DNA of 28,291 nucleotides from a bacterium. Lineage in GTDB: Bacteria > DUMJ01. Positions 836 to 18,852 of the stretch are shown here, one piece after another. The stretch is from contig JBMFMV010000018.1 of assembly GCA_049970495.1 (NCBI GenBank), forward strand, positions 1 to 28,291, given 5' to 3'. The notes below the pieces were generated by a model. The model saw only the letters and a list, made by a program, of their open reading frames with translations. It was not told the DNA's origin and made no database searches. The position numbers and the translations under genes were made by a program. Position 1 is the stretch's first letter. Each line of letters starts with the position of its first letter.

Positions 836-1474
836 CTAGGATTTTACTGATTTAGGGTTTTGCTTTTGATAATGTCTTTTGTTTAGCTCTCTATATATTT
901 CTTGGGGAGCTACCTCTAATTTGGCTAGTAAGACTAACGTATGATAGAAAAGGTCAGAAATCTCATAAACTACCTCATCTTTATTATCTTTCATCCCTGC
1001 TAATAAGACTTCCACTATTTCTTCACCAATCTTTTTAAGAATCCTTTCTCTTCCTTCTTCTAGAAGTCGAGAGGTATAAGAATCTTCTGTAGGGTTAAAC
1101 TTTCTAGATAGAATTATCTCATATAGCCTATCTAGGTTAAATCTGGTATATTCTTTAGAGTAAATCTCTTGAAAAAAGCAACTTAAATGTCCTGTATGAC
1201 AAGCTACTCCTTTTTGTTCTACTATTACAAGCAGCGCATCTCCATCACAGTCTAATCTAATCTCTTTTACTTTTTGTATATTACCACTAGTCTCCCCCTT
1301 ATTCCATAGCTTTTGTCTCTCTCTACTCCAAAACCATGTAGTCCCTGTCTCTATGGTCCTTTTCAAAGATTCCTCATTCATATAACCCAACATAAGGACT
1401 TCTCCGGAATTAGCCTCCTGGATAATGGCGGGGATTAATCCATCCTTATCGAACTTTATATTAGATAAGTTTAT
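836..1474 (-). CDS. hisIE: Bifunctional phosphoribosyl-AMP cyclohydrolase / phosphoribosyl-ATP pyrophosphatase; 5' end uncertain (no ATG/GTG/TTG upstream of 1393)
   Basis: [29 protein letters not shown] and KKIGEE motifs. The conserved HisI N-terminus [22 protein letters not shown] is encoded in frame at 1456-1391, upstream of the ORF-track start. Confidence 0.93.
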
Positions 1475-2232
1475 AGTCGTACCGGGATCCCTTCCTTTTT
1501 TAGATATTCTTTTATCTCTTTTACCGTGTACTTTTTGTAGTGTAATAGAGAAGCAATCAATGCAGCACTGGCTTTTCCATCCTTTAATACGTCTCTTATG
1601 TGCTCTAAGTTCCCAGCACCGCCTGAGGCTATTACAGGTATATTAACCATTTCTACTACAGCCTTGGTAAGAGTTATATCGTATCCTTGTTGTGTTCCAT
1701 CGGCATCTATACTTGTAAGCAGTATTTCCCCTGCGCCCAGTCTTTCCACCTCTTTAGCCCAACTTACTGCTTCTAGATTGGTAGGTGTAGTTCCCCCATT
1801 GATGTAAACTCTCCAGCCCCCCATATTTTCATCTCTTTTTGCATCTATAGCTACAACAATACACTGTGAACCAAAGATCTCCGATGCTTCTTTTATAAAA
1901 GATGGATTTCTTACTGCCTGTGTATTTATGGATACCTTATCTGCACCTGATCTTAATATCTCTCTTATTTCTTCTACGCTACCTATACCACCTCCTACTG
2001 TAAAGGGGATAAATACCTTAGAAGCTGTTCTTCTGACAAGTTCTACAATAGTTCTTCTTCTTTCAATAGAAGCAGTTATATCTAAGAATACTAATTCATC
2101 TGCTCCTTCTTTATCATAGTATTCCGCTAATTCTACTGGGTCTCCTGCATCTTTAAGGTCTATAAAATGTGTCCCTTTTACAACCCTGCCATCTTTTACA
2201 TCAAGACAGGGTATTATCCGCTTAGTGAGCAT
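1471..2232 (-). CDS. hisF: Imidazole glycerol phosphate synthase cyclase subunit
   Basis: [48 protein letters not shown] motifs. Confidence 0.98.
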
Positions 2233-2935
2233 ATTTTATCGCCTCTTCCAGACTGATTTTACCTTCATAGAGTGCCTTACCTATAATAGCACCTATAGCA
2301 CCAGCTTCCTTTACATTTCTTACATCTTCTATAGAACCTATACCTCCAGAGGCTATAGTTGCTACATTTACAGATGTTATAAATCTCTTTAATCCTTCTA
2401 TATCTGGGCTACATAGAGTTCCATCTCTTTCTATGTTAGTATAAATGAATTCTTTAACCCCAAGGTCTCTAAACTTTTTGCCAATTTCTATATAGCTAAG
2501 TCCTGTGTTTCTTAGCCATCCATGTATGAGAACTTTTTCATCCTTTACATCTAGACTTACTATAATATTTTCCCGATACCTTAATAGAGCCTTCTCTAGA
2601 AATTTCTCGTCTTCAAATACTATACTCCCGAGAATTACTTTTCTAGCCCCATATTCTATATAATTCTCGATATTTTCTAAAGATCTAATTCCTCCACCAA
2701 TCTGCACTGGTACTTTTACTGACTTTATTATCTTTAGTATGATATCCTTATTTACTAGTTTACCCGATACTGCACCATCTAGGTCTACTATATGTATCCT
2801 ATCAGCCCCTCTATTCTCCCACTCTTTAGCTACTGCTATAGGGTCATCACTATAGGTGACCTTCTTACTAAACTCACCTTTAGTAAGTCTTACGCACTTT
2901 CCTTCTATTATATCTATAGCTGGTATTATTTCCAT
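2222..2935 (-). CDS. hisA: ProFAR isomerase
   Basis: [31 protein letters not shown] motifs; his operon context. Confidence 0.97.
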
Positions 2936-3536
2936 AGACGATTCCTAGAAAATTTTTATAAACCTTTAGTCCCTCACTACTACTCTTTTCGGGATGAAAC
3001 TGAACGGCGAATATATTATCCTGACATATAACGGAGGGAAATTCAATCCCATACTCTGTTATACCACATATAGAGTCTTTATTTAATGGTTCTCCATAAT
3101 AAGAATGTACAAAGTAAAAGAAACAATCATTCTTGATCCCTCTAAAGATAGGAGTATCTCTTATTATCCTAACCTGATTCCAACCTATATGTGGTAGTGG
3201 AAGAGTATCTGGGAGTCTTTTTACTATACCTTTTATAAGCCCTAATCCTTTGGCTTCAGGGGATTCTTCGCTCTCTTCGAAGAGAAGTTGTAGACCAAGA
3301 CAGACTCCAAGGAGTGGTACCCCTCTATCTGCAGCTATTTTAATGACTTTACAGAGATTCTTCTCTTCTAGTAGTCTCATCCCCCAACCAAAGGCTCCTA
3401 CTCCTGGAAGAACTAATCCCCTTGCCTCAAGGATATTATTAGGATTATCTGAGATAACCACATGAGCACCAAAATATTCTAACGCCTTTTTTACACTGAA
3501 TAAATTACCTGCTCCATAGTCTATTATGGTAATCAA
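2880..3536 (-). CDS. hisH: Imidazole glycerol phosphate synthase glutaminase subunit (TTG start)
   Basis: IIDYGAGNL, LPGVGAF, GVCLGLQ, YFVHSY, QFHPEKS class I amidotransferase motifs. Confidence 0.97.
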   Translation of the reverse strand: MITIIDYGAGNLFSVKKALEYFGAHVVISDNPNNILEARGLVLPGVGAFGWGMRLLEEKNLCKVIKIAADRGVPLLGVCLGLQLLFEESEESPEAKGLGLIKGIVKRLPDTLPLPHIGWNQVRIIRDTPIFRGIKNDCFFYFVHSYYGEPLNKDSICGITEYGIEFPSVICQDNIFAVQFHPEKSSSEGLKVYKNFLGIVYGNNTSYRYNRRKVRKTY

Positions 3537-3539
3537 GAC

Positions 3540-4115
3540 TTACAGAACTCCTTTGGTGGAAAGAATATCATCTGTTTTCTTTACAGCTTCTCTTAAAGAG
3601 AGACCTAAAGATTTCATAAGACACTCAGCTGTATGGTGAGAGTTATTACCTCTGAGCTTTAAAATATGGAGGGTCATCTTACTATTCATAGCAAAAGCCT
3701 TTAAGAATTCTATCAGCCATTCTGTCTGGAATGTCCCTATAAAGCTATCGGTAAACAAATCATTAGTTTCAAAATACGGCCTTCCACTAATATCAATACT
3801 TGAGATTATTAGTGCATCATCCATAGGAGTAATAGAATATCCAAATCTTGCAATTTTAAAGTCTCCTAGAGCCTTATTAAGAGCAGAACCCAAAACAATC
3901 CCTACATCTTCACATAGATGATGTCCATCTACATCTAAATCTCCGTTAGCGGTAAGTTCTATATCAAATCTACTATAGAGAGTAAAAGAGATAAGAAGAT
4001 GATTAAAAAAACCTATCTTAGTATCTATATTACCTTTGCCAGTTCCGTCTATATTCAAATTTATCCTTATATCTGTCTCTCTAGTCGTTCTACTTATTGA
4101 AATCTCTCTAGGCAT
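3540..4115 (-). CDS. hisB: Imidazoleglycerol-phosphate dehydratase
   Basis: RTTRETDI, GDLDVDGHHLCEDVG, NSHHTAE, STKGVL motifs. Start placed at ATG 4115 (AGGA upstream) rather than 4136. Confidence 0.96.
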   Translation of the reverse strand: MPREISISRTTRETDIRINLNIDGTGKGNIDTKIGFFNHLLISFTLYSRFDIELTANGDLDVDGHHLCEDVGIVLGSALNKALGDFKIARFGYSITPMDDALIISSIDISGRPYFETNDLFTDSFIGTFQTEWLIEFLKAFAMNSKMTLHILKLRGNNSHHTAECLMKSLGLSLREAVKKTDDILSTKGVL

Positions 4116-4145
4116 AATATATGTCTTCCTATACACACTTAAGGT

Positions 4146-4174
4146 ATTATACTATAAATCCAAAGATAAGACAA
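4146..4174 (-). promoter_or_regulatory. Sigma70-type promoter for hisBHAF-IE
   Basis: TTGTCT (4174-4169), 17 bp, TATAAT (4151-4146). Confidence 0.7.
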
Positions 4175-4175
4175 C

Positions 4176-5318
4176 TTAGCAAAGAGTAAGCGCCTTAATC
4201 AATCCCCCAATTTGATAAGAGACCCATTCCAATTGTCTCTTCGTATTTCTTATAGATTCTTCTAGGGTTATAGGTCCTCTTGTGATTGAGAATAACGCAT
4301 CTACTAGCCCTTCTTTTATCAGTATATCAGCATCTTCATCTACAGCTCCACCTAATAATATTACAGGGATTGACCTTTCTTTAGCCTTCTTTGCTATTCC
4401 TGCAGGTCCTTTACCAAATATTGTCTGTCCGTCTATTTTACCTTCACCGCTTATAACTATATCCACTCCTTTTAGCTTTTCTTCTATATCCAGCGTCTCC
4501 AACACTACGTCAATTCCCGGTCTTAGTTGGGCATTTAAGAAGGCAACTAAACCCCCTCCTAAACCACCCGCTGCTCCAGCACCTGGGAGGTTTAATATAT
4601 CCTTATTCAAGTCTCTCTTAATTATTTGGGCAAAATTAAACAATGCCTTGTCTAGTTCTTCTATTAATTCTTTAGTTCCACCTTTCTGTGGTCCATATAC
4701 GTATGAAGCCCCTTCAGGTCCACAGAGGGGATTTTTTACATCTGCCATCACTATAACTTCGCACTGTTTTGCTAAAGGATGGAAATTACTCATATCAATA
4801 GAAACAAGATCTCTAAGTGCTAATCCTCCAAACGGCAATTCCCTGCCTTCTTTATCTAAGAGTCTTACCCCTAAAGCCTGTGCCATTCCAGCCCCACCAT
4901 CATTAGTGGAACTCCCGCCTATCCCTACTAATATCCTTTTTACACCTCTCTCTAGAGCTTCTTTTATAAGTTCTCCTACTCCATATGTTGTAGTAATGGC
5001 AGGGTTTCTCTTCTCTTTTGGAACTAGGGCTAAACCAGAAACTCTTGCCATTTCTATAACCGCTGTCTTTCCATCACCGAGAATTCCAAATTTGGCTTTT
5101 ATCTTCTCTCCTAAAGGTCCAGTTACTTCTTTTTCTATAAATTGCCCATTAGTGGCTTCTACTAAGACCTCGATAGTTCCATCCCCCCCGTCTGCTATTG
5201 GGAGAACTACAATAGCACTATTAGGGAGGGCTTTTAAAAGCCCTCCCTTTATAGCCTCCCCAGCCTCTCTGGCTGAGAGGGCTTCCTTAAATGCATTAGG
5301 AGCTACTAGTATTTTCAT
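4176..5318 (-). CDS. glxK: Glycerate kinase (GlxK/GarK family)
   Basis: [57 protein letters not shown] motifs. Confidence 0.95.
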
Positions 5319-6289
5319 TTCTTTAGCACTTCTGGATTTACCGGATTTGGAGGTGTCTTCCCCGCTAAGACAGCTAGGAGATTCTCAGCCGCCATTGTGG
5401 CCATCTTAGTCCTTGTTTCTACACTTGCGCTAGCTATATGGGGAAGTAGTACAGTATTTTCGCATTCAGCCAGTCCTGGAACAAGTTTAGGCTCGAACTC
5501 ATAGACATCTAAACCGGCTCCTGCTATCCATCCTTCTTTCAAAGCTTTTACTAGTGCATTTTCATCTACCACAGGACCCCTAGATGTATTTATAAGATAG
5601 GCAGTCTTTTTCATCTTCCTTAATCTTTCTTCATTTATCAGGTGATATGTCTCAGGAGATAGATAGGTATGGAGAGAAACAAAGTCGCTCTGTTCTAAAA
5701 GTTCATCTAGAGATACAAATGTGGCGTTAAGTTCCTTTTCAAGCTCTTCAGGGATTCTTCTTATATCATTGTATAAAACCTTCATATTAAACCCCTTTGC
5801 CCTTCTTGCTACAGCTTGTCCAATCCTTCCCATCCCTACAATACCTAGTGTCTTTCCATAGACATCCTGGCCAAGGAAAAGCATAGGGGCCCAGCCTTCA
5901 TACTTTCCTGCTCTTGTAAATTTATCTGCCTCCACTATTCTTCTGGCAGTAGCTAAAATGAGAGCCCAGGCTAGGTCTGCTGTAGTTTCAGTAAGGACTC
6001 CTGGCGTATTAGTTACTACTATTCCTCTCTTTGTTGCCTCATTTACGTCTATATTATCATATCCTACTGCATAGTTACTTACGACCTTTAGTTGGGGACC
6101 TGCAGCATCGAATACCTCTGCATCAATCTTATCAGTCAAAAGGCATAGGATACCATCCTTACCCTTTACTGCTTGAAGCAATTCTTCTCTAGTTAATACT
6201 CTGTCATATGGATTTACTTCTACTTCATGTTCTTTTCTAATCATCTCTATTCCAGGCTCTGGAATTCTTCTTGTTATGTAAACTTTCAA
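5315..6289 (-). CDS. D-glycerate dehydrogenase / glyoxylate-hydroxypyruvate reductase (D-2-hydroxyacid dehydrogenase family)
   Basis: [51 protein letters not shown]. Probable TTG start at 6289, 6 nt after GGAGGTG (track start GTG 6298 lies within the RBS). Confidence 0.92.
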
Positions 6290-6301
6290 TACATTCACCT
6301 C

Positions 6302-7648
6302 CTAGCTTAATAAGAATCCTGATGATGATATTATATCACCTAGACCTACGGTAAGTTTGGGTGACTGAACAACTTTAGTAGGTACTATTATCAGATTAAA
6401 GTTATTTATCCTTTTAATACCTTCATAACCTGTTAGTGTAATAGTCGGAACTTCTAATCCCTTCTTTAGGTCTTCTAGAGTCTCATATCTGCCGAGTAAA
6501 GATCTTGTAGCAGCAAGGATAGCAGAGAATAGAAGGGCAGTTCTTTCATTAATCTCATTCTTCTCTCTAGTAATAGATATATAGTGTCCTAGTGTATGCA
6601 GTTGGATCCTCTTTAAAGGGATCCTCTCCATAACCTTTAGTAAACCATCTATAAGTTTTACTATAGGAAATTTAGAATCTTTAAGCTCCTTTGATAGTTC
6701 CTGTTCCCCAATATCATTGAGTAGTGTTGCAAACTCAATCTCGTTTAATCCAAGGCTATCTATTATAGGGAATATGTGTTTTGCTACTAGCCTTCTTATT
6801 ATAGGGCTTCCAATAGAGGCAAATTCATAATGGACTCTTAGTCCTAGTTTTTCTTTCATTTGGCTTACAAATTCGGCTACTGGAACAATAAAGTCCTCGC
6901 AGGTTTTACCTTCAGGGTATTTCTCTAAGAGGATATGAAAACCGGACACCAAAAAGTGTGTAAACTTATCTGGTATAAGGAATATATCTCTTTTGAATTC
7001 TTCAGCTACCCTTAATCTACAATTGACAGGATTCCATGCTGCGATAAATCTATTAGCTCTAGGAGCTTCTATTAACAAGTTATCTAACTCTAATCTCAGT
7101 CCCCTACTATATTCTAATATCCAGTGTATAGCAAATATACCCTGATCTTTCCATGCCTTTCTAGGAGACTTGAGAACTGGCTTTTCATCATCTCTGGTTA
7201 GGACAAAGAGATTTTCTCTCTCAGGGAAAAGTTCAGCCAATTCTTTAGTAAGCGGATTTGCATATACTAGGATCTTACTCAATGGTAGTGGTGATAATAG
7301 ACTGGCCATATTAGCAGAGGTTCCTCCTAATCTTAGTTGGTCATAACCAATGTTTTCTAAAGCCCACTTAAATGTCTCCTCATTCTCTATCATCCTTTGA
7401 TAGGCTAGTCCCTCTCTAATAGATATAAGGAGATCGGTAATAAGGTCTTCTGGTGTTCTTATGACCGATGTTGGTTCGTTAGGGATATCTTTTATATGTG
7501 GAAATTGATCTAATAATCTTTTTAGGAGTATCTCATCTACCCTCTTTAATCCATCTATAGTTGAATGGAATCCGGTAATTACTCCTGGAATCCTCTGTAG
7601 CTTCTTCCAACCTTCCTCTAATGCTCCTCTATAGAGCTCTTCCCACAT
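6302..7648 (-). CDS. ADP-dependent glucokinase/phosphofructokinase family sugar kinase
   Basis: 448 aa; RLGGTSANMA, IHWILEY..G, APRANRFI, SGFH, SLGLNEIE (NExE), HTLGHY and C-terminal PKLTVGLGDIISS match the ADP-PFK/GK signature order; RBS AAGGAGG. Confidence 0.88.
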   Translation of the reverse strand: MWEELYRGALEEGWKKLQRIPGVITGFHSTIDGLKRVDEILLKRLLDQFPHIKDIPNEPTSVIRTPEDLITDLLISIREGLAYQRMIENEETFKWALENIGYDQLRLGGTSANMASLLSPLPLSKILVYANPLTKELAELFPERENLFVLTRDDEKPVLKSPRKAWKDQGIFAIHWILEYSRGLRLELDNLLIEAPRANRFIAAWNPVNCRLRVAEEFKRDIFLIPDKFTHFLVSGFHILLEKYPEGKTCEDFIVPVAEFVSQMKEKLGLRVHYEFASIGSPIIRRLVAKHIFPIIDSLGLNEIEFATLLNDIGEQELSKELKDSKFPIVKLIDGLLKVMERIPLKRIQLHTLGHYISITREKNEINERTALLFSAILAATRSLLGRYETLEDLKKGLEVPTITLTGYEGIKRINNFNLIIVPTKVVQSPKLTVGLGDIISSSGFLLS

Positions 7649-8498
7649 TGTTTAAAGCCTCCTTGTATGCCTCTTCGGAAGGATAGTTTTCATGAAGGAT
7701 GAGTTTCATAGCTAGAGCCATTACTTCTGGTTTCTCACTTAAGAATACGTTCCTACCAACAACAAAACCACTAGCTCCTGCCCTTATCCCATCTTCAAAA
7801 TCTCTTAAAACATCTAGAGGATTATCGCGTTTGGGACCTCCTAAGAGCAAGACTTTTGCATTTACACTATCTACTATTCTCTTAAACTGTTCTATACCTT
7901 CCTCTCTAGAATTAGACTTGACATAAGGAATTTTGAGAATAGGCACTCTAAAATCATTGGTTATTATAGAAACCCACTTTATTGCCTCATAGGACCTATC
8001 CATAGTTAATTTTCCATCTTCTAGGTTCATATATAGAGGTTCTACCATAAGGGGCATAGACCATTTCTCACATTCTTCCACAACATTGGTAAGTAGAGTT
8101 AGTTGGTCATTGGTGAGTCGATTATTTTTGTTAAACTTTATAAGGAGCTTTACACCATCAAGACCCCATCTAAGGGCGGTCTCTACCGTGCAGACAAGTC
8201 TATCGTCCATTTCAAATCTTGTCCCAGCTAGGCCTGTCCTATTAAGGCTTAGAACTAGTCCTTTGCCTCTTAAGTTACCATTGACTATAAGTTGGGCTAG
8301 CGGTTCTTTTGTAGTCATTATAGCATCAAGATAGGGTGATAGTCTTTCTATAAGGGAGATTAAATCGCTAAAGTTGTCTATCCCTTCTTGGATACCTCGC
8401 TGTCTATGGTCTATGGCCAAGACCATAGCCTTTCCATCTTTTGGAAAGATGCGAGATATCCTATTGGTTATTCCTATATCATAGAAAAGTGACTCCAT
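7629..8498 (-). CDS. Class I (DeoC/LacD/FbaB-like) aldolase, resembling Cgl0159-type aldolases of iol clusters
   Basis: LAIDH, PLMVEP, Schiff-base-type LKIPY, LLGG, GFVVGRN. The segment NRTGLAGTRFEMDDR is recalled as typical of iol-associated aldolases. Confidence 0.8.
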   Translation of the reverse strand: MESLFYDIGITNRISRIFPKDGKAMVLAIDHRQRGIQEGIDNFSDLISLIERLSPYLDAIMTTKEPLAQLIVNGNLRGKGLVLSLNRTGLAGTRFEMDDRLVCTVETALRWGLDGVKLLIKFNKNNRLTNDQLTLLTNVVEECEKWSMPLMVEPLYMNLEDGKLTMDRSYEAIKWVSIITNDFRVPILKIPYVKSNSREEGIEQFKRIVDSVNAKVLLLGGPKRDNPLDVLRDFEDGIRAGASGFVVGRNVFLSEKPEVMALAMKLILHENYPSEEAYKEALNNVGRAL

Positions 8499-8509
8499 CG
8501 AATTCCTCC

Positions 8510-9532
8510 TTAGTCGTTTATCACTACTGCTTTTCCAGTTCTGCTAGACTCATATACTGCAAGTATAAATTGTACAGCTCTTCTACCATCCTCTCCAGTG
8601 ATGCTAGGGGTCCTATTGTATAACACCGCTTCTGCCATGTCTTTTATCTGCGCTATATGTCCTTTTATAAAAAGGGCTCGAGGATCGCTTGAGGCGGATT
8701 CACCTTGAGAAGATAATTCTCTTTTTTCTTCTCCTTTTATTAACCAATCCCTTACAAATGGGCCTTCTACTACTACACTACCATTTGTACCATGAACTTC
8801 TATTCTCTCTTTAAAACCGGGATAACAGGCAGTTGATCCTTGAATCACTCCCAAGGCTCCATTCTTATACTTTATTATAGCTATAGCTACGTCTTCTACT
8901 TCTATATTATGTGCTAATGTTCCACAGTATGCAGTTATCTCCTTCACAGGTCCGGCAAGATAAAGTAGCTGGTCTACAAAATGTACAGACTGGTTCATTA
9001 ATGCTCCACCGCCATCTAGAGCCCAGGTACCACGCCAACCTGCACTATCATAGTATTCTTGAGTTCTCCACCACTTTACATAGGCATCAGCCATAACAAG
9101 CTTACCAAGCTTTCCAGACTCTATAGCTGACTTTAATTCTTTAATCCCTGGATCAAATCTATGCTGAGATATAACGCTAAGCTTAACTCCGGCCTCTTGA
9201 CATGCCTCTATAAGGGCATCAGCCTTTTCTAAAGTAATATCTATAGGTTTTTCTACTAAGACATGTTTTCCTGCTTTTGCTGCTTTTATCCCTAACTCTG
9301 CATGTAAACCACTGGGGACACAGATATTTATTACGTCTATATCATTTCTAGTTAGCATTTCATCGTAGTTAGTATACCAGTCCACTCCATATTTCTCTCC
9401 TAACTCTTTAGCTCTCTCTGGTATAATATCACATACAGCCTTAAGTTCTGCTATCTCTATATTCTTTATAGCTTCTGCATGAGTAGGACCTATAACTCCG
9501 CACCCAACTATACCAAATCTTACTTTATCCAT
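8510..9532 (-). CDS. Gfo/Idh/MocA family NAD(P)-dependent oxidoreductase
   Basis: GIVGCGVIG, GKHVLVEKP, WRGTWALDGGGALMNQSVHFVD. Confidence 0.93.
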   Translation of the reverse strand: MDKVRFGIVGCGVIGPTHAEAIKNIEIAELKAVCDIIPERAKELGEKYGVDWYTNYDEMLTRNDIDVINICVPSGLHAELGIKAAKAGKHVLVEKPIDITLEKADALIEACQEAGVKLSVISQHRFDPGIKELKSAIESGKLGKLVMADAYVKWWRTQEYYDSAGWRGTWALDGGGALMNQSVHFVDQLLYLAGPVKEITAYCGTLAHNIEVEDVAIAIIKYKNGALGVIQGSTACYPGFKERIEVHGTNGSVVVEGPFVRDWLIKGEEKRELSSQGESASSDPRALFIKGHIAQIKDMAEAVLYNRTPSITGEDGRRAVQFILAVYESSRTGKAVVIND

Positions 9533-9536
9533 ATTA

Positions 9537-10358
9537 TCACCTCTCTATCTCGGATAGTATTTTCTTTAATGCCTGAGATGCCTTTTTAAAGAGTTCAGGA
9601 CCGGAAAACCCTTGGAACTGTCCACTATGGGCAAGGTGTGGTTCAAGACTTAAAAAATATTCTCTACCTTTCTTCTTTAAAGACAGTAATATTTCTTTTA
9701 TCTCTCCATCCCCTTCTCCCGCTGGGACCTCAACTCCATCTGAGAAATGAGCATCCTTTATATGCACATACTCTATATAACTCTCTAGAGGTAGATAAGC
9801 CTCTCTAAATGGTTTTACTCCACACTGTATAAAGTTTGATGGGTCAAATACTGCCTTTAAGTTTGGGGAGTTTATACTCTTTAATATATCTAGACATCTT
9901 TCAGGTGTATCTCCGTATATCTTCTTTTCGTTTTCATGTAACAGTATAATCCCTTCTTTTTCTGCTATTTTTACAAGTTCCCCTAGTCTCTCTAGCGATA
10001 TCTTTCTAAGTTCTTCTATGCTCATCCCTTCTTCTGGGTAGAAAGAGAATATCCTAACATATGGGGTTTCAAAAAAATGTGCTAATTTTATGGCGTTCTG
10101 AAGTTTCTCCTTCTGTCCTTCCATATCTTCCCTCGCCCTAACTTTTCCAATTGGGGAAGCTATAGCCGATATCTTTATTCCATACTTATCTAACATCTCT
10201 TTTATCTTGTGGCTATCTTCTTCGGTTAGAGCCACTACATTTTTCCCTAAGGCACTTCTTAATTCTAGATAACCTATTTCCTCTTCTTTTAATACCATTA
10301 ATTGTTCTTCAAAGTCAAATGATATCTCATCACCAAATCCAGAAAGTTTATACCACAT
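9537..10358 (-). CDS. Sugar phosphate isomerase/epimerase (xylose-isomerase-like TIM barrel)
   Basis: LSGFGDEI, SPIGK, HENE, FDPSNF, HIKDA, SLEPHL metal-ligand pattern. Confidence 0.88.
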   Translation of the reverse strand: MWYKLSGFGDEISFDFEEQLMVLKEEEIGYLELRSALGKNVVALTEEDSHKIKEMLDKYGIKISAIASPIGKVRAREDMEGQKEKLQNAIKLAHFFETPYVRIFSFYPEEGMSIEELRKISLERLGELVKIAEKEGIILLHENEKKIYGDTPERCLDILKSINSPNLKAVFDPSNFIQCGVKPFREAYLPLESYIEYVHIKDAHFSDGVEVPAGEGDGEIKEILLSLKKKGREYFLSLEPHLAHSGQFQGFSGPELFKKASQALKKILSEIER

Positions 10359-10370
10359 CTTCTTCCCTCC

Positions 10371-11168
10371 TTATAGTTCTTTAATTATCTGTTCAGCCCA
10401 TTTTATCCAAGCATGTTTAGTGTCATCTCTAGGGATATTTACAGGATCCTCTCCAGCTAATACCCATAGATAGTAGAGAGAATATCCTGGTGCGGCTACT
10501 ACAGGATGGTACCCTTTAGTAATAGGAAGGGCAGTATTATCTGTTACCGCATAGACCTCATCTATATCACCCTCCTCTGTATAGACCCTTTGGAAACCAA
10601 ATCCACTAGATGGATTTAACCTGTACAGATAGACTTCTTCCATCCTCCATTCGTAAGGAGGATTGTGTTTATCATGTTTATGCGGTGGATAACTAGACCA
10701 ATTTCCGGGAGGATTAACCGTCTCTCCCATTATTATATGTTTAGCTCCAACCTTCCTATCTATAACCTGAGTTACATATCTTTTCCAATTATGCGTACCA
10801 ACAACTCTTCTTTCTATCTCGTTAGGAGATATTACTACTACATCTACGTCATTTGGTTCTGACTTTACAGTTGCAAATATCAACTCACTATTGTCTAGCG
10901 CTCTTATTTCTACCTTTTTGTTAGGTGGAATATATATTCCCCAAGGTTTGCTATTAAATATCTCACTTCTAGGTCCTAGTATATTTTTTCCGTTGACTTC
11001 CACTCTTCCGCTTCCTAAGATACAACCAATTTCTCTTTTTTCTTCTCCTAAGAATATATTTTCTCCGGCTTTCAATCTAAGGACAAATAGTTTTATCCAC
11101 TCTAAACCCTCTACAGGGACTTCTAAAATTCCCACTCCTTCTGGCACCTTAGCTAATTTAGGACTCAT
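10371..11168 (-). CDS. iolB: 5-deoxy-glucuronate isomerase (IolB/KduI family)
   Basis: GNWSSYPPHKHD, EEVYLY, GFGFQRVYT, GYHPVVAAPGYSLYYLWVLAG. Confidence 0.92.
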   Translation of the reverse strand: MSPKLAKVPEGVGILEVPVEGLEWIKLFVLRLKAGENIFLGEEKREIGCILGSGRVEVNGKNILGPRSEIFNSKPWGIYIPPNKKVEIRALDNSELIFATVKSEPNDVDVVVISPNEIERRVVGTHNWKRYVTQVIDRKVGAKHIIMGETVNPPGNWSSYPPHKHDKHNPPYEWRMEEVYLYRLNPSSGFGFQRVYTEEGDIDEVYAVTDNTALPITKGYHPVVAAPGYSLYYLWVLAGEDPVNIPRDDTKHAWIKWAEQIIKEL

Positions 11169-11921
11169 TTAACCCCACTCCTTTCTTAAGAATTCAAGGC
11201 TTTTAGGTAATTCGCGCTTTTTATCCTCCCATCTACATTCTACTGAGATAAACCCCTTATATTCCACCTCTTTAAGTACATTAAATAGAGACTTAAAATT
11301 ATAGTCTTTTTTGCCTGGTGCTACCCTTTCTCTATCTGATACATGGACGTGATAAAGTTTCTCTTTTATTCTATAGATATTATATAGGGGTTCATTTTCT
11401 AAATCTGCATGGTAATTATCTATAAGTACCCCAATATTTGGACTATTAATTTTGTCTGCAAATTCTAAGGCTTCTAATGTTGTATTTATAATATTGCTCT
11501 CTTTCTTGTTTAGAGGTTCTATAGCTATCTTTATATCGTATTCCTTTGCATATTTATCTACTATATTTAGGAATTCTATAATCTGTAAACTAGCTGTTTC
11601 TTTAGAGAATCCTTCTGGAAAAGATCTAGACCTACCACTTCCAAAGACAACTATCTTTCCTCCAAGAAAATTTACTCTTCCTAAGGCTTCTTTTATATAT
11701 GCCTCTACTTTTTTTAAATCAACATTAGAACCAGTAATTGGTAGATCCCCTGGTAGGAACACATTAAAAGAATAGGCTTTAAGATTTACTTTATCAAGCT
11801 CTTCCTTTACTTCAGTTATATTAGCCTGCATAATAGATGTTACAGCAAACTCTATAAAATCTGCCCCACTAGAACTTATAACTTCTATTTCTTCTATTGA
11901 TCCACAACAACCAAAATTCAT
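11169..11921 (-). CDS. D-tagatose/D-psicose 3-epimerase-like TIM-barrel epimerase
   Basis: IAIEPLNKKESNIINT, DNYH, HVHVSD..R.APG, ISVE give the E/D/H/E ligand set. Confidence 0.85.
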   Translation of the reverse strand: MNFGCCGSIEEIEVISSSGADFIEFAVTSIMQANITEVKEELDKVNLKAYSFNVFLPGDLPITGSNVDLKKVEAYIKEALGRVNFLGGKIVVFGSGRSRSFPEGFSKETASLQIIEFLNIVDKYAKEYDIKIAIEPLNKKESNIINTTLEALEFADKINSPNIGVLIDNYHADLENEPLYNIYRIKEKLYHVHVSDRERVAPGKKDYNFKSLFNVLKEVEYKGFISVECRWEDKKRELPKSLEFLRKEWG

Positions 11922-12919
11922 TATTCCCTCCTTGAAGTTGTATTTCTAATGATAAGTTCGGGCTCAAGCACCAGGTTTTGTCTTTCTCCTTTCATTAACT
12001 TAAGAAGGAGCTCCACAGCCTTTCTCCCTAGCTCTTCTTTAGGTTGTTTGACTGTAGTAAGGGGAGGATCAGTGAAATTAGAGAAGAATATGTTATCGAA
12101 CCCAATGATTGATAGTTCTTCAGGGATCTTTATACTTAATTCTTTTGCTGCCTTTATTACCCCAAATGCCATCAAATCATTGTAAGTAAATATAGCAGAA
12201 GGAGGATCCTTAGTGTAGAGTAACTTTACTGCTTCTCTATAACCTGATTCTGCTGTAGGAGTATTAAATGAGACCAAGTTAGGATTATATCTTATCCTAG
12301 ATTCTATAAGTGCCTTTTTATAACCAGACAATCTCCTTTTTGCTGCCTCAGAAAGACTAGGTCCGTTTATAAAGGCGATTCTTGAATGGCCAAGATTTAC
12401 CAAATATTTAGTTGCTAGATATCCACCCTTTTCCATATCTACTGAAACATATGATATTTTTGGATGTTCTAATATTCTATTTATAACTACTATTGGTAAT
12501 CCTTCTTCAGCTAGATTAATGATATGTTCATTTGATATCCTAGAGGCAGAGATTATAACTCCGTCAACTGGACCACGAGAGAAAAAGTCTAGATAATTTG
12601 TCTCTTTTTCTTCTGATTCTGAGGTATTTCCTAGAAGGATGGTATATCCAGCTTCACTAGCCTTTTCTTCTGCTCCCCTTACTAGCTCAGGGAAAAAGGG
12701 ATTAGTAATATCAGTTATGAGAAGTCCAATATTCTTAGTACTTCTAGTCGTTAAAATTTGCCCTCTATAATTAGGTTTGTAATGTAGTTTCTTCGCTACT
12801 TCTATTATTCTCTGTCTAGTTCTTTCACTTATCCCTGGGTGGTTATTTAATGCCCTACTAACAGTAGAAGGGGATACCCCCGCTAATTTTGCTACTTCTT
12901 GGATATTTGCTCTTTTCAT
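11921..12919 (-). CDS. LacI family transcriptional regulator
   Basis: IQEVAKLAGVSPSTVSRALN HTH, YKPN hinge, NPFF, IIGFDN, PPLTTVKQP. Confidence 0.97.
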   Translation of the reverse strand: MKRANIQEVAKLAGVSPSTVSRALNNHPGISERTRQRIIEVAKKLHYKPNYRGQILTTRSTKNIGLLITDITNPFFPELVRGAEEKASEAGYTILLGNTSESEEKETNYLDFFSRGPVDGVIISASRISNEHIINLAEEGLPIVVINRILEHPKISYVSVDMEKGGYLATKYLVNLGHSRIAFINGPSLSEAAKRRLSGYKKALIESRIRYNPNLVSFNTPTAESGYREAVKLLYTKDPPSAIFTYNDLMAFGVIKAAKELSIKIPEELSIIGFDNIFFSNFTDPPLTTVKQPKEELGRKAVELLLKLMKGERQNLVLEPELIIRNTTSRRE

Positions 12920-12953
12920 ACCTTCCCTCTATAACGATTGCAATTTTACTTGC

Positions 12954-12982
12954 ATTTTATAATGAAAGCCTTTATATGTCAA
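12954..12982 (-). promoter_or_regulatory. Sigma70-type promoter of the LacI operon
   Basis: TTGACA (12982-12977), 17 bp, TAAAAT (12959-12954). Confidence 0.8.
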
Positions 12983-13199
12983 GCGGTTCGACGTTCTAAA
13001 TTTGTAATCATTAAATGTAAGGTTGTATATTGATTCCTGAAGGTAGCAAGAAGGGCATTATTTGTCCCTCTAGTTTGTGATATTATTTAAATAAAAATGG
13101 AGGTAGGAGAGTTATGATATATGTAACCCTTATTCCGAGTTTTAGTTATCATGATACGAGAATCTTCTGTATTGGGCAGGCTGAAGAGCCTTTATTAAT

Positions 13200-13228
13200 T
13201 TGACTTTAGTATACTTTTGGAGTATAAT
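13200..13228 (+). promoter_or_regulatory. Sigma70-type promoter upstream of the TolB-like gene
   Basis: TTGACT (13200-13205), 17 bp, TATAAT (13223-13228). Confidence 0.7.
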
Positions 13229-13427
13229 CTTTCATAAGAGGCAAGATAGTGAAGGGAGTTGAGATTGGAAGGATAGGAGTGTAAGATTTGGAATTTCCCT
13301 TGTTAGTTTGAGGGAGGATTTAAGTTTTAAATTCTTTGAAAGAAGAACTGTTAGGGAGTCTTAAAATTTTATTTATCTTGTCTCTAAATGTGGATTTTTT
13401 ACTTTTTATTATAGAAGGGAGAAGAAT

Positions 13428-14330
13428 ATGAAAAGATACCTAAGATTATTAGTGTTTTTTATAGTACCAAGTCTCTTCCTTATGGGACTTTACGGTTGCG
13501 ATGGTTGTAACCCAGAGTCTATAGTAAATTTGGGAAGAATCGTGTTTGCAAGTGGACGTGATGGAGACCTTGAAATTTACACAATGAATCCGGATGGAAC
13601 TGGTCTAACTAAGATTACAGATAATCAAGCTCTTGACTATTGTCCCTCTTTTTCTAAAGATGGTTCAAAGATTGCCTTTGTATCTGAACAGGAGGGAAAC
13701 CCGGAAATTTACACAATGAATAGGGATGGTACTAATCAGGTTAGAATTACAAATAATCCCGCTTGGGATTATTATCCAAGTTTTTCTCCAGATGGACAAA
13801 AGATTTTATTCTATTCTAGACGTGATGGAAATGATGAGATATATCTCTATGATCCGACGGTTATTTCTCATCCTCAACTGACCAATCTTACCAATGATCC
13901 AAGTTATGATTTGCATCCATCCTTTTCCCCAGATGGGCGAAAAATTGTCTTTGTTTCTGACCGTGATGGAGATACTGAGATCTATACAATGAGTATAGAT
14001 GGTACTAATCTAACTAAGCTTACTAATAATAATAGTCAAGAATATTTTCCTCGTTTTTCACCAGATGGTGGTAAAATCGTATTTACATCCAATCTTGATG
14101 GAAATGATGAGATCTATATAATGAATGCAGATGGCTCTGGTATAACTAGACTTACAAATGACCCAAGTCAAGCTTGGTCCCCCTGTTTTTCATTACTCGG
14201 TACAAAAATTGTCTTTCAATCTAAACGTAGTGGAAGTTGGGAAATATATGTAATGAATATTAATGGAACTGACTTGACTAAGCTTACAGATCATCCCTCT
14301 GGTAATGTGGATCCTTTCTGGGGACGTTAA
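13428..14330 (+). CDS. TolB-like beta-propeller (PD40 repeat) lipoprotein
   Basis: Signal peptide with lipobox-like LYGC; about six P.FSPDG.KI.F.S.RDG..EIY.MN.DG repeats. Confidence 0.9.
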   Translation: MKRYLRLLVFFIVPSLFLMGLYGCDGCNPESIVNLGRIVFASGRDGDLEIYTMNPDGTGLTKITDNQALDYCPSFSKDGSKIAFVSEQEGNPEIYTMNRDGTNQVRITNNPAWDYYPSFSPDGQKILFYSRRDGNDEIYLYDPTVISHPQLTNLTNDPSYDLHPSFSPDGRKIVFVSDRDGDTEIYTMSIDGTNLTKLTNNNSQEYFPRFSPDGGKIVFTSNLDGNDEIYIMNADGSGITRLTNDPSQAWSPCFSLLGTKIVFQSKRSGSWEIYVMNINGTDLTKLTDHPSGNVDPFWGR

Positions 14331-14359: not shown

Positions 14360-14398
14360 TAGGGAGTAGATAAAGAGTCTACTCCCTAGTTTCCTTTT
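14360..14398 (+). terminator. Intrinsic terminator between convergent genes
   Basis: Perfect 11-bp stem TAGGGAGTAGA (14360-14370) / TCTACTCCCTA (14378-14388) followed by GTTTCCTTTT. Confidence 0.75.
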
Positions 14399-15129
14399 GT
14401 TGAATTTAAGATTTTCTCTGCATTTCTATGCAGTATGTTAAATTTATCTTCCTCTTTTATCTTACTGCCTCTTACCCAGCCAATAGCTGGTCTTGGGTCT
14501 ATAAATGGAAAGTCTGTCCCAAATAAAATCCTTTTGCTACCAATTTTTTCTACGTAATACTCAATTATCCCGTTATACATGGCTGAGCCCGTCAAGTCTA
14601 GATAGATATTATTAACATCCTTTGCCAGTTCTACTGCTAAAAGCATAGACCTTAAATCTCCACCTGAATGTCCCATTATAAATATTGCATTCTGATAAGA
14701 TTTAGCTATCTCTATAATTGTTCTTACGTCTCTTTCTCCCCAGGTATGTATTAAGATAGGCCATTTATGTTCATCTGCATATTTGTAAGCATATAAGTAG
14801 TTAACACCATCTATGGGATACGCGTGTGTTCCAGGATGTAACTTTATCCCGATAAATCCTTGAGAAGCTCTTTCCTTGAGCTCTTCTTCTATCCTATCTG
14901 CAAAATATGGACTTAGTGTGACGTATCCTCTGAATCTGTCTGGAAATGCCATCATAGCCTCAAGAACCATCTCATTTCCTAATTTATAATCTGGTCCTAT
15001 ACTTATAAGGGCACTTATCCACGCACTTTCCATCCCTATCCTGTCCATTATCCTTACCATAGATAGGAAGTCTCCACCATCATAATAAAAGTTAAACCAC
15101 TTTCCTAGATGGGCGTGAGCATCTATCAT
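14386..15129 (-). CDS. Amidohydrolase_2 family metallohydrolase
   Basis: IDAHAHLG, GIKLHP, ILIHT, MGHSG, LFGTDFP all intact. Confidence 0.92.
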   Translation of the reverse strand: MIDAHAHLGKWFNFYYDGGDFLSMVRIMDRIGMESAWISALISIGPDYKLGNEMVLEAMMAFPDRFRGYVTLSPYFADRIEEELKERASQGFIGIKLHPGTHAYPIDGVNYLYAYKYADEHKWPILIHTWGERDVRTIIEIAKSYQNAIFIMGHSGGDLRSMLLAVELAKDVNNIYLDLTGSAMYNGIIEYYVEKIGSKRILFGTDFPFIDPRPAIGWVRGSKIKEEDKFNILHRNAEKILNSTKGN

Positions 15130-15872
15130 AGTTCTACCTCCTGAATAAGTCTATCTGCGTTTTTATAGGCTATATAATCTTTAGCCCTCTCTGGTATGTC
15201 TGCTTTTTCTATGTAATATATAGTGGAACCAGGATTTTTATATGGAAGGTTGCTTCCAAAAATCATACGTTCTTCACCAAATCTCTTATACAAGGTCTCT
15301 ATTCCAAGAAAAGGAATATAGCCAGATAACTCTATATAAATATTTTCGTATCTTTTTAAAAGAGGGAAGATATAAGAACTTTGTCTGTATGTTAAGTCCG
15401 CTAAAACCAGTCTAAGGTTAGGATGATTTCTCAAGATAGCATATATATCTTTCCATCCTGAATTGTTTGGAGATAGTATTATTGGAATTTTTAACTCTTC
15501 TAAAAATGATAATAAGTCTCCCACTACTTCTTCTTCCAATATGAAATTATGTAAATCTGGGAAAAATCTAACTGCTTTAACTTTGTTTATTTTGAATTCT
15601 TCCAAAAGTTTATCTGGTGTATCTATTGGGAAGATATCAAGTGGTAGTAAAACCCATGCGGCATAAAGGTTAGGATAATCCTTAATCTCTTCTATTAACC
15701 TTTTGTCTCCAAAGTAGGCGTCATAATCTCTACTGTAGCTATGATAGACTAAGACCTTTTTTATATTAAATCTTTCTAGCTCCTCACTTAATCTTTTCGC
15801 GTCTAGCCAGTTGTTTAGAGGAATAATAGTAGGTTTCCCTATCATTACATTAAAATCAAAGTAGGCTCTCAT
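15126..15872 (-). CDS. Amidohydrolase-fold protein lacking metal ligands
   Basis: Same size and architecture as its neighbour (AVRFFP, HPNLRLVL, NIYIELS, MIFGSNLP) but no HxH or catalytic Asp. Confidence 0.82.
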   Translation of the reverse strand: MRAYFDFNVMIGKPTIIPLNNWLDAKRLSEELERFNIKKVLVYHSYSRDYDAYFGDKRLIEEIKDYPNLYAAWVLLPLDIFPIDTPDKLLEEFKINKVKAVRFFPDLHNFILEEEVVGDLLSFLEELKIPIILSPNNSGWKDIYAILRNHPNLRLVLADLTYRQSSYIFPLLKRYENIYIELSGYIPFLGIETLYKRFGEERMIFGSNLPYKNPGSTIYYIEKADIPERAKDYIAYKNADRLIQEVEL

Positions 15873-15881
15873 TTGTCCTTT

Positions 15882-16766
15882 TCATCCTATGTCTTGTATG
15901 TATACTTCACTGCCACTAAGATAAGAAACTTCTATAGCCTTTAAGACTTTCACTACTTCTAACATATCATCATAGTCTATAGGTAATTTAGAAGTCTTTA
16001 TCATCTCTAGAAATTTTAAGAGTCCATAATAGTATGGAGATGTAGTTTGCCTGCCATCCCAATAGCTCCATCCATTTTTGCCAAATGCAGATATAGTAAA
16101 TGTATAGACCGCATTACCAAGCATTAGAAGTTCTACTATTCTATCGTCGGGGTAGGTAAGAGTAATTGCTATATTATTGTTATTATTTACTGCTATAACT
16201 CTCTCAACTCCACTACCAAATATCTCCTGGCATAATTCTACTATATGGACGCCATAAAAGAATATACCTTGATATTCACTATTAATATCTGCAGGACCAC
16301 ATACAAACCCAGCAGTAAGAGGCCCTTTAGAAAGTAGATCTTCTTTTAATTTCACAATAGGCTCATCAAATCTAAGAGTAGAAAAGGATGTTATAGGGGT
16401 ACTTTTCTCTTTGGCTAACCTTACTATCCTCTTTGCATTTTCTATAGACGTTTCGATAGGTTTGTCTATAAATGTTGGAATACCTGCTTCGATAAATGGT
16501 TTTGAAAATTTATAGTGTATTGCGCCGTCTCTTAATACTATCATTACTGCATCTATTTTACCAATCATATCTTCAGGGTATTGAACTATCTCTGGAATAT
16601 TTCCTAATCTAGCAACCTCTTCTGTTCGATTTTTCTCGAATCCCCATATAGCTACTACTTTTGCCTCTTCCACTTTTAGCCCTTTAACGCCTTCTGGCAG
16701 ATTGGTAAGCTGTGAAAAGGCTATTGCGTGAGAATTATCAGATCCTACTATGCCAATTCTAATCAT
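15882..16766 (-). CDS. Gfo/Idh/MocA family oxidoreductase (short type)
   Basis: RIGIVGSDNSHA, PTFIDKP, FFYGVH motifs. Confidence 0.88.
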   Translation of the reverse strand: MIRIGIVGSDNSHAIAFSQLTNLPEGVKGLKVEEAKVVAIWGFEKNRTEEVARLGNIPEIVQYPEDMIGKIDAVMIVLRDGAIHYKFSKPFIEAGIPTFIDKPIETSIENAKRIVRLAKEKSTPITSFSTLRFDEPIVKLKEDLLSKGPLTAGFVCGPADINSEYQGIFFYGVHIVELCQEIFGSGVERVIAVNNNNNIAITLTYPDDRIVELLMLGNAVYTFTISAFGKNGWSYWDGRQTTSPYYYGLLKFLEMIKTSKLPIDYDDMLEVVKVLKAIEVSYLSGSEVYIQDIG

Positions 16767-16790
16767 TGGAAATCCCTCCCGATCTTAAAG

Positions 16791-16826: not shown

Positions 16827-16830
16827 GAAA

Positions 16831-18801: not shown

Positions 18802-18852
18802 TTTAAAACACCTCCTCCTTTTTTAATTATTCTAAAAATAGTTTACCCATCT

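Follow-up and report, generated by a model that had tools for sequence, protein, structure and literature searches.

We analysed a 28,291-nt stretch of bacterial DNA, contig JBMFMV010000018.1 of assembly GCA_049970495.1 (lineage DUMJ01), which is called the window here at its full length. The host genome comprises 143 contigs and about 2 Mb and is 95.5% complete. Positions 4176-12919 of the window carry a candidate operon, hereafter the operon, which combines an IolB-family isomerase with an adenosine diphosphate (ADP)-dependent sugar kinase, a class I aldolase and two genes of glycerate metabolism. It seems to specify a previously undescribed means of cleaving six-carbon keto-acids derived from inositol, with two three-carbon glycolytic units as products, through an ADP-dependent kinase of archaeal type whose sugar pocket is of a new kind. 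Families were assigned with Pfam and NCBIfam profiles, and scores were set against the curated NCBIfam cut-offs. Contigs, loci and genomes are referred to by C, L and G numbers. The features of the operon, in order of transcription, are as follows.

12935-12982, minus strand: promoter and operator-like box (-35 TTGACA at 12982-12977; -10 TAAAAT at 12959-12954; spacer 17)
12943-12935, minus strand: operator-like box TTGCAATCG, between the -10 box and the lacI start codon
11921-12919, minus strand: LacI-family regulator (PF00356 and Peripla_BP_3; below every NCBIfam equivalog cut-off)
11169-11921, minus strand: TIM barrel 1 (TIM1), ketose 3-epimerase/IolO/hydroxypyruvate-isomerase-like (PF01261, 125 bits)
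10371-11168, minus strand: IolB-family cupin aldose-ketose isomerase (KduI/IolB; PF04962, 243 bits)
9537-10358, minus strand: TIM barrel 2 (TIM2), divergent AP_endonuc_2 (PF01261, 96 bits; weak UlaE-like NCBIfam matches)
8510-9532, minus strand: Gfo/Idh/MocA NAD(P) sugar dehydrogenase (Pfam; IolG model 186 bits, cut-off 355)
7629-8498, minus strand: DhnA/Cgl0159-type (DeoC) class I Schiff-base aldolase (PF22649, 100.6 bits; PF01791, 68.8 bits)
6302-7648, minus strand: bacterial-clade ADP-dependent sugar kinase (ADP_PFK_GK, PF04587, 259 bits)
5315-6298, minus strand: D-2-hydroxyacid dehydrogenase, glyoxylate/hydroxypyruvate reductase type (PF02826/PF00389)
4176-5318, minus strand: glycerate kinase, GlxK/GarK family (PF02595, 490 bits; TIGR00045, 491 bits, cut-off 168)

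The open reading frame listing showed that nine co-oriented minus-strand frames fill 4176-12919 entirely. The junctions, in transcription order, are a 1-nt overlap, gaps of 0, 12, 4 and 11 nt, a 20-nt overlap, a 3-nt gap and a 4-nt overlap, which bears out the tight packing of nine genes described in the original prediction, a note made from the sequence before this analysis. That prediction had also put the nine genes under one promoter. TTGACA-17-TAAAAT (12982-12954), directly upstream of lacI, was the top promoter-like site of 3300-13500 with 11 of 12 matches, and CTTGAC, the -10 box and TTGCAATCG were invariant across seven aligned upstream regions (the window and six related loci), in which the flanks and the sequence further upstream had diverged. 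Both observations support this. Promoter-like sites overall were not in excess (29 observed against 29.8 in shuffles), so that the site score by itself is weak evidence and the conservation of the upstream region is the stronger. An inverted-repeat search of the region upstream of lacI found none. TTGCAATCG has only four exact occurrences in the whole genome. An SBP_bac_5 gene on another contig (C36:194-2320, L112) is preceded by TTGACT-TATAAT and the same box; this gene possibly belongs to the same regulon and supplies part of a transporter.

The ADP-dependent kinase and its aldolase partner

The kinase gene is present in single copy in the genome, and the best NCBIfam and PDB matches of its product are ADP-dependent phosphofructokinases (PFKs). 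The family is small, with 594 representatives in a 50%-identity library, and a collection of 5.8 billion proteins contained 137 matches, which were proteins of bacterial metagenome-assembled genomes (MAGs). The catalytic motifs are conserved (Asp438 of GXGD, N302 and E305 of NXXE, and the Arg R200). In the available sections of PMC7948494, glucokinase and phosphofructokinase are the only sugar specificities given for the ADP-dependent kinase family. The same sections give the residues of the ancestral enzyme AncMsPFK that bind fructose-6-phosphate (F6P), the PFK determinants K179 and R212 and the glucokinase determinant E90. We mapped these residues onto the kinase through a HMMER alignment to chain 6C8Z, in which the chain index equals the AncMsPFK number plus 21; this offset was checked at N32/N34/D36, E90, K179/N181, R206, R212, Q244 and D471. 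The correspondence, with the AncMsPFK residue given first, is as follows.

D36, ring end/catalysis: D32, kept
G114-G115, ring end/catalysis: G108-G109, kept
R206, ring end/catalysis: R200, kept
D471, ring end/catalysis: D438 (GXGD), kept
N32, phosphate contact: H28
N34, phosphate contact: T30
E90, phosphate contact and glucokinase determinant: Q84
K179, phosphate contact and PFK determinant: A173
N181, phosphate contact: H175
Q244, phosphate contact: H238
R212, F6P (PFK) determinant: N206
Q116, ring contact: T110

All six contacts of AncMsPFK to the phosphate of F6P are replaced in the kinase, and the catalytic and ring-end residues are retained. The PFK determinants K179, N181 and R212 are absent (A173, H175, N206), as is the glucokinase determinant E90 (Q84), and N32, Q116 and Q244 have become His, Thr and His. 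The predicted pocket is therefore neither PFK-like nor glucokinase-like. It is kept at the end that would bind and phosphorylate a 2-ketose with a free C1 hydroxyl and is remodelled around the distal substituent, and such a pocket would fit a keto-uronate, the carboxylate analogue of F6P.

We aligned the window protein with 71 proteins from other loci and 30 more distant representatives. All seven signature replacements were present in 69 of the 72 clade proteins, the exceptions being L022 (Thr at 173), L080 (three positions differ) and L048 (truncated). Among 28 outgroup representatives outside the clade, eight had the full PFK pattern (K, N, R) and the rest were mostly glucokinase-like (E, H, D). 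In a maximum-likelihood tree of 99 rows the bacterial kinase clade was monophyletic, with a Shimodaira-Hasegawa-like approximate likelihood ratio (SH-aLRT) support of 100, and the window's family formed its own branch within the tree (SH-aLRT 100). L080 and P0128 form a long-branched subgroup within the bacterial clade, in which E84, N110 and Q238 replace Q, T and H, and this subgroup may have yet another specificity.

In the aldolase, whose best PDB matches are Cgl0159 (3FOK) and MJ0400, the Schiff-base lysine is retained as K189, which lines up with the LsrF lysine replaced by alanine in the mutant chain 4P2V. The enzyme falls below all NCBIfam equivalog cut-offs, including those for ADH synthase (130 against 241 bits) and archaeal fructose-bisphosphate aldolase (FBA; 90 against 430). 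We scanned contigs across genomes and obtained 80 kinase loci. The conserved synteny asked about in the original prediction was found in part. All nine genes are syntenic in only six of the 80 loci (L002-L007; kinase identity 69-89%), all from the window's own family; outside it the full gene order is lost and the kinase/aldolase core persists. Of the 80 loci, 19 include an aldolase of this family, which in 15 is no more than 200 bp from the kinase; the phyla represented are Thermotogota, Bacillota, Chloroflexota and Bacteroidota. Adjacent pairs occur, among others, in Halanaerobiales (L037, L038), Chloroflexota (L057), Chitinophagales (L074), a Bacillota MAG (L030) and Thermotogaceae (L053, L054, L056, L081). 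Athalassotoga saccharophila NAS-01 (L066), whose genome alone among the 80 loci comes from a cultured organism, has the kinase and, at a separate place in the genome, the aldolase.

In several loci the aldolase is fused to an AP_endonuc_2 barrel, and such TIM-barrel/Cgl0159-like fusions of about 690 aa occur in MAGs of Bacillota, Thermotogota, Omnitrophota, Latescibacterota, Chloroflexota and Bacteroidota. Genome-wide, PF22649 was detected in 39 of the 49 other kinase-bearing genomes (mostly as fusions of about 690 aa) and in 7/7 genomes of the window's family, as against 0/34 comparison genomes without the kinase and 1/14 control genomes; these counts are descriptive, as the MAGs are incomplete and mutually related. 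Computation thus supports the kinase and the aldolase as a conserved functional pair. We think it very probable that they act on a 5-keto-hexonate in the manner of IolC and IolJ.

Inositol enzymes, routes not found and a putative glycerate branch

Among the other enzymes of the operon, the cupin is encoded once in the genome, scored 203.1 bits against the TIGR04378 cut-off of 205 and has the IolB-like protein 2QJV as its best PDB match. TIM1 scored 121-122 bits with IolO models (cut-off 300), 91 with psicose epimerase and 65-66 with hydroxypyruvate isomerase, and its best PDB match was TM_0416 (98 bits). This is the barrel that the original prediction called DTE-like, and the genome has a better IolO candidate in a gene on contig C2, which scored 283 bits to its 121. 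TIM2 best matched MJ1311 (39 bits) and AsbF (28 bits) in the PDB and resembled the TIM domain of the TIM::aldolase fusion at L030, from another phylum (BLASTP E=3e-11); BLASTP similarity of TIM1 and TIM2 to the fusion at L054 of Thermotogaceae was not significant. The Gfo dehydrogenase is closest in the PDB to 3Q2I/3Q2K (218 bits), which we take to be dehydrogenases acting on a uronic-acid sugar, and matches the inositol dehydrogenase 4HKT at 107 bits. Homologues of 46-48% identity adjoin the kinase in L030, L070 and L073. We considered this protein as the IolG of the route and regard that as doubtful: it is about 24% identical to the IolG-like protein of Thermotogaceae, and the genome holds 25 Gfo paralogues.

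Genes for inositol-type upstream enzymes lie outside the window. Contig C44 encodes IolM (scyllo-inosose 3-dehydrogenase; C44:3599-4753, 569 bits against 450) and, adjoining it, IolN (3-dehydro-scyllo-inosose hydrolase; 308.6 against 245), and IolN was above cut-off in 7/7 genomes of the window's family. Their neighbours are a Cof-type sugar phosphatase, a 221-aa protein without a family and a second Zn-dependent dehydrogenase. The latter (C44:1449-2465; L108:5512-6573; L110:5272-6303) is 57-59% identical across phyla and stands beside IolM/IolN in clusters without a Gfo-type IolG, where it may catalyse the first dehydrogenation of the route. The best IolO-like gene, the one on C2, falls short of the cut-off (283 against 300 bits; 277-285 in 7/7 family genomes) and lies behind another LacI gene, with a Zn-dependent dehydrogenase, a ROK regulator and a ribose-type ATP-binding cassette (ABC) transporter as neighbours. 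Contig C37 encodes a homologue of the divergent IolK-like PfkB kinase that follows IolN in Thermotogaceae. IolM, IolN and the IolO-like enzyme would together yield 5-keto-L-gluconate/D-tagaturonate, compounds that would retain the C2 hydroxyl lost in the canonical route. This Thermotoga-type IolM/IolN/IolO route is described in the available parts of PMC5931981 and PMC12632266.

The original prediction stated that the operon holds no iolC, iolD or iolA and is not the canonical iol route. Both statements are true, and the absence extends to the whole genome and to IolE, as no equivalog of the four was found there. The best IolD scores were 242 and 237 bits against 715 (acetolactate-synthase-like and glyoxylate-carboligase-like proteins) and the best IolC score was 189 against 300 (a protein of contig C13 that scores higher as a 2-keto-3-deoxygluconate (KDG) kinase). 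The best IolA score was 336 against 448.5 (higher as alpha-ketoglutaric semialdehyde dehydrogenase), and the best IolE score was 51 against 290. The canonical deoxy route therefore cannot run as known. As to a hexuronate exit, UxaC was not found in this genome, UxuA gave only partial matches of 22-27 bits in the family and altronate dehydratase (UxaA) was found in 0/6 genomes of the window's genus, the search not extending to UxaE, UxuB or the enolase-type mannonate dehydratases. With IolM and IolN above cut-off (product 5-keto-L-gluconate) and no UxaC, UxuA or UxaA found, the non-deoxy 5-keto-hexonate proposed originally is a plausible substrate. A free hexuronate as the entry compound, which had been proposed with it, now appears less likely than an inositol-derived one, and we consider the latter the most likely substrate.

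Links between the pair and inositol genes were also seen in other lineages. At L054 of Thermotogaceae, genes for an IolK-like kinase, IolN (526 bits), an IolG-like Gfo protein and IolM (527 bits) are divergent from a transketolase-like gene, a DeoR gene, a TIM::aldolase fusion and the ADP-dependent kinase. At L060 and L111, IolO (401 bits), a rhizopine-type ABC transporter, IolN, an IolG-like protein and IolM are encoded in one cluster; on the divergent side are a TIM::aldolase fusion, a PCC-domain protein, an M24-like protein, IolB (222 against 205), a tripartite ATP-independent periplasmic (TRAP) transporter and a kinase, and an inositol monophosphatase gene adjoins. In Bacillota, L108 contains genes for LacI, IolM, the second dehydrogenase, IolN and IolO (353 bits) at 9 kb from a kinase paralogue. 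IolB was above cut-off in 11 of the 49 other kinase-bearing genomes. A protein of about 430 aa without a Pfam or NCBIfam match, 55-68% identical among its members, is encoded in kinase clusters of Mesoaciditogaceae and a Chitinophagales MAG (L077:2315-3625, L065:1350-2627, L070:2377-3648, L074:3813-5030).

The last two genes of the operon point to glycerate. The dehydrogenase scored 449 bits against a cut-off of 455 for glyoxylate reductase (PRK13243) and 289 for GhrB, and the glycerate kinase is the only one in the genome. The dehydrogenase gene starts 3 nt past the stop of the kinase gene and is overlapped by the glycerate kinase gene by 4 nt; judged from these junctions, translation of both glycerate genes is coupled to that of the kinase gene. 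Both are kept in 6/6 syntenic loci at 88-98% identity, above the conservation of their neighbours. It follows from the chemistry that aldol cleavage of a 6-phospho-5-keto-hexonate with a C2 hydroxyl would yield dihydroxyacetone phosphate (DHAP) and tartronate semialdehyde. Hydroxypyruvate, the isomer of tartronate semialdehyde, is a substrate of glyoxylate/hydroxypyruvate reductases. At L077 a non-homologous MOFRL-type glycerate kinase (288 bits, below cut-off) abuts the kinase cluster, which fits the glycerate idea. In ten Thermotogota loci (L053, L054, L056, L064-L067, L069, L070, L075) a protein of about 750 aa with weak similarity to transketolase (113 bits against 488) is encoded beside the ADP-dependent kinase. 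Transketolases accept hydroxypyruvate as a donor, and this neighbour fits the idea that hydroxypyruvate is formed.

On the downstream side, hisB, hisH, hisA, hisF and hisIE (836-4136, minus strand) follow glxK after a 39-bp gap. The gap contains a promoter-like site (4174-4146) and no terminator-like site on that strand, so read-through into his is possible; hisB follows the operon in 5/6 syntenic loci. On the upstream side, a separate cluster (14386-20944, minus strand) encodes two Amidohydro_2 proteins without an NCBIfam match, a short Gfo-like protein, an SBP_bac_5 binding protein, a DUF362 protein with two 4Fe-4S motifs and a short NAD-type 6-phosphogluconate dehydrogenase (393 bits against 297). 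This cluster is not kept beside the operon in relatives. We rejected the two amidohydrolases and the short Gfo protein (14386-16766) as ring-cleavage enzymes, given that they are not conserved beside the operon in L002-L007 and have no NCBIfam match. Contig C8 carries a paralogous Gfo/amidohydrolase/TIM2-like group. The genome is rich in such paralogues (about 32 SBP_bac_5 proteins, 25 Gfo/Idh/MocA proteins and many AP_endonuc_2 barrels) and looks like that of a sugar specialist. The nearest relatives of the window's lineage in the collection are at the 'same domain' level.

The proposed route and its competitors

We propose that the upper steps are encoded off the operon, where IolM and IolN (C44) and the IolO-like epimerase (C2) would turn inositol into 5-keto-L-gluconate/D-tagaturonate with all hydroxyls kept. 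The ADP-dependent kinase would then phosphorylate the primary hydroxyl next to the keto group, the role that IolC has on the deoxy compound, and the Cgl0159/DhnA-type class I aldolase, in the role of IolJ, would split the product into DHAP and tartronate semialdehyde. One of the TIM barrels or the IolB cupin would convert tartronate semialdehyde to hydroxypyruvate, the 2-hydroxyacid dehydrogenase would reduce this to D-glycerate and the glycerate kinase would return glycerate to glycolysis. The Gfo dehydrogenase, the other barrel and IolB might serve to correct stereochemistry or to channel related aldonates and uronates into the keto-acid pool. We infer all substrates, ADP as the donor and the identity of the three-carbon product. 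That the nine genes form one LacI-controlled operon for the lower half of a non-canonical inositol/keto-uronate pathway has, in our estimate, an even chance of being right, and the same balance applies to the full predicted mechanism, from an inositol-derived keto-acid through DHAP and tartronate semialdehyde to glycerate and phosphoglycerate.

Several observations weigh against this route, and some of them favour a competitor. No Hyi equivalog was found in the genome (best 81 bits against 353; TIM1 65) and no tartronate-semialdehyde-reductase equivalog of the GarR/GlxR type (best 275 against 341, contig C1). An operon isomerase would therefore have to convert the semialdehyde to hydroxypyruvate, and this conversion is the weakest link of the model. 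The dehydrogenase and glycerate kinase genes stand beside the ADP-dependent kinase in the window's family only (6/80 loci); the glycerate branch is lineage-specific, the kinase/aldolase core widespread. Just 8 of the 49 other kinase-bearing genomes have IolN above cut-off, a number that includes all five Thermotogaceae genomes with TIM::aldolase fusion and kinase loci.

The operon IolB scores as a near-equivalog of 5-deoxy-glucuronate isomerase, which has no evident place in a non-deoxy route. In a canonical-like deoxy alternative, IolB would make 2-deoxy-5-keto-gluconate and the ADP-dependent kinase and class I aldolase would replace IolC and IolJ, giving DHAP and malonate semialdehyde, with the glycerate genes as an unrelated, appended module. 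Cgl0159, the closest solved relative of the aldolase, presumably lies in the iol cluster of C. glutamicum, and at L022 a class II aldolase, IolB and the kinase are encoded in a row. IolD is above cut-off in 8 of the 49 other kinase-bearing genomes, three of which are the Thermotogota genomes G050, G056 and G062 with the TRAP/transketolase-like type of cluster. An IolB-like gene adjoins in G050 and G056, and in G056 IolD and the IolB-like gene are a few kb from the kinase cluster, so that the pair may act on a deoxy compound there. The glycerate genes could be fed from elsewhere: a glyoxylate-carboligase-like thiamine pyrophosphate enzyme (C13:857-3309, L095; 716 bits against 791) might provide tartronate semialdehyde or glycerate from a second side and could independently need the sole glycerate kinase. 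Its gene adjoins an IclR-family regulator, and nearby are a GH63-like protein with weak similarity to glucosylglycerate hydrolase, a KDG-kinase-like gene and a TIM barrel. However, the genome has no equivalog of IolD and IolE to make 5-deoxy-glucuronate or of IolA to remove malonate semialdehyde, the kinase gene and the glycerate genes are coupled, the latter being kept in all syntenic loci, and IolM and IolN, which would give the non-deoxy acid, are found in 7/7 family genomes. We regard the deoxy route in the host as unlikely.

A keto-uronate might also arise without any link to inositol, if IolB isomerised galacturonate or glucuronate in place of UxaC, or if the Gfo enzyme oxidised an aldonate, and then pass through the same lower steps. 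IolB is an aldose-ketose isomerase acting on a uronate, UxaC was not found and the Gfo protein is closest to 3Q2I/3Q2K. In addition, kinase clusters of Mesoaciditogaceae contain TRAP transporters, which are typical of organic-acid uptake, IolN is missing from the genomes with these clusters and a heparinase II/III-like gene lies in the L030 cluster. The search for hexuronate routes covered UxaC, UxuA and UxaA only. On the other hand, the operon contains no transporter and no pectin or uronate enzyme, and IolM and IolN are conserved in the family. This free hexuronate or aldonate entry, to which we give a similarly low probability, shares its lower pathway with the proposed route and is partly a sub-case of it.

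A purely glycolytic role is far less probable. Here the kinase would be the ADP-dependent phosphofructokinase of the lineage and the aldolase a class I FBA of archaeal type, in a sugar operon ending at F6P. A PFK of the PfkA family is above cut-off in 0/7 genomes of the window's family (28/34 among the comparison genomes), which weighs on this side, as do the PFK matches of the kinase and the weak matches of the aldolase to archaeal class I FBA models. But the F6P determinants K179 and R212 are Ala and Asn and all phosphate contacts are replaced, PfkA is present in 46 of the 49 other genomes with this kinase clade, and the operon is without a first kinase or phosphotransferase system to make a sugar 6-phosphate. 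Furthermore, a class II FBA (313 bits) is encoded in the genome, as are two PfkB-type hexose-phosphate kinases that exceed the subfamily cut-off; PfkB-type kinases are encoded on C50 and C56.

One correction to the original prediction concerns the pair outside the window's lineage: in certain lineages it is accompanied by IolD and an IolB-like gene, as would suit the deoxy route. Because the pair sits with IolM/IolN, with IolD or with TRAP transporters in different lineages, it looks like a general lower module that is fed by the IolM/IolN route, by the IolD route or by imported acids, depending on the lineage.

Relation to known systems and meaning

A T. maritima inositol pathway with IolG, IolM, IolN and IolO was reportedly described by Rodionova et al. 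in 2013 (Environ Microbiol 15:2254). The window's genome shares with it IolM and IolN equivalogs, an IolO-like epimerase, an IolK-like PfkB kinase and an IolG-like Gfo protein. In T. maritima, however, D-tagaturonate enters the hexuronate/KDG route and no kinase of the ADP-dependent family is present, as seen in the control genomes; here UxaC, UxuA and UxaA were not found, the kinase/aldolase/glycerate operon stands in their place and the genes lie on at least three contigs instead of in one cluster. The B. subtilis-type iol system (IolG, E, D, B, C, J, A), like the route proposed here, has an IolB-family isomerase followed by C6 phosphorylation of a 5-keto-hexonate and aldol cleavage to DHAP and a three-carbon aldehyde-acid. 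The operon differs from it in that the kinase is of the ADP-dependent and not the PfkB family, the aldolase is class I of the Cgl0159/DhnA type and not class II, and IolE, IolD and IolA are missing; the expected three-carbon product would be tartronate and not malonate semialdehyde, handled by a reductase and a glycerate kinase.

The modified Embden-Meyerhof pathway of archaea uses the same two protein families in the same order (ADP-dependent PFK and class IA fructose-bisphosphate aldolase), and the substrate proposed here would be the carboxylate analogue of F6P, with products analogous to DHAP and glyceraldehyde-3-phosphate. Unlike the archaeal enzymes, the kinase lacks the PFK and glucokinase specificity residues, its clade is bacterial and monophyletic, and its context is one of inositol and sugar-acid genes under a LacI repressor. 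E. coli has glycerate branches with GarL/GarR/GarK and Gcl/Hyi/GlxR/GlxK. As there, tartronate semialdehyde/hydroxypyruvate would be converted to D-glycerate and then to phosphoglycerate by a GlxK/GarK-family kinase; in contrast, the semialdehyde would come from a DHAP-releasing class I aldolase and not from a pyruvate aldolase or carboligase, the reductase belongs to the D-2-hydroxyacid dehydrogenases and not to the GarR/GlxR type, and there is no Hyi equivalog.

Searches of the full-text literature, with subscription journals and Rodionova 2013 outside their scope, found no phosphorylative cleavage of tagaturonate, fructuronate or 5-ketogluconate and no ADP-dependent kinase linked to iol genes. 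Cgl0159 and the names of tagaturonate, fructuronate or 5-ketogluconate kinases or 1-phosphates had no full-text match, and the full-text literature on 5-keto-L-gluconate and diketo-inositol described no phosphorylative cleavage. In the available part of PMC12632266, the tagaturonate/5-keto-L-gluconate route runs through altronate and KDG. A review of the PFK superfamily (PMC12203962) mentions ADP-dependent PFKs in passing only.

Tentatively, and with a likelihood that we put a little short of even, the bacterial clade would constitute a third specificity class of ADP-dependent kinases, a keto-uronate/5-keto-aldonate kinase, which with the Cgl0159-type aldolase, often fused to a TIM barrel, would form a widespread dehydratase-free lower pathway. 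Under the same tentative reading, this pathway would split inositol-derived 5-keto-L-gluconate/D-tagaturonate, and elsewhere the 2-deoxy analogue or imported acids, into DHAP and a three-carbon aldehyde-acid, and would here complete the Thermotoga-type route via tartronate semialdehyde, glycerate and phosphoglycerate. The logic of such a module would mirror the PFK and FBA steps of glycolysis on sugar acids.

If this is true, the ADP-dependent kinase family would have a new function beyond glucokinase and phosphofructokinase, and the Cgl0159-like aldolases and the TIM-barrel fusions of about 690 aa would be given a role. For organisms without a hexuronate pathway, the operon would provide the exit that the IolM/IolN inositol route lacks. 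It would also lead from sugar acids to two glycolytic intermediates in few steps and without a dehydratase, which is of relevance to the valorisation of inositol/phytate and pectin.

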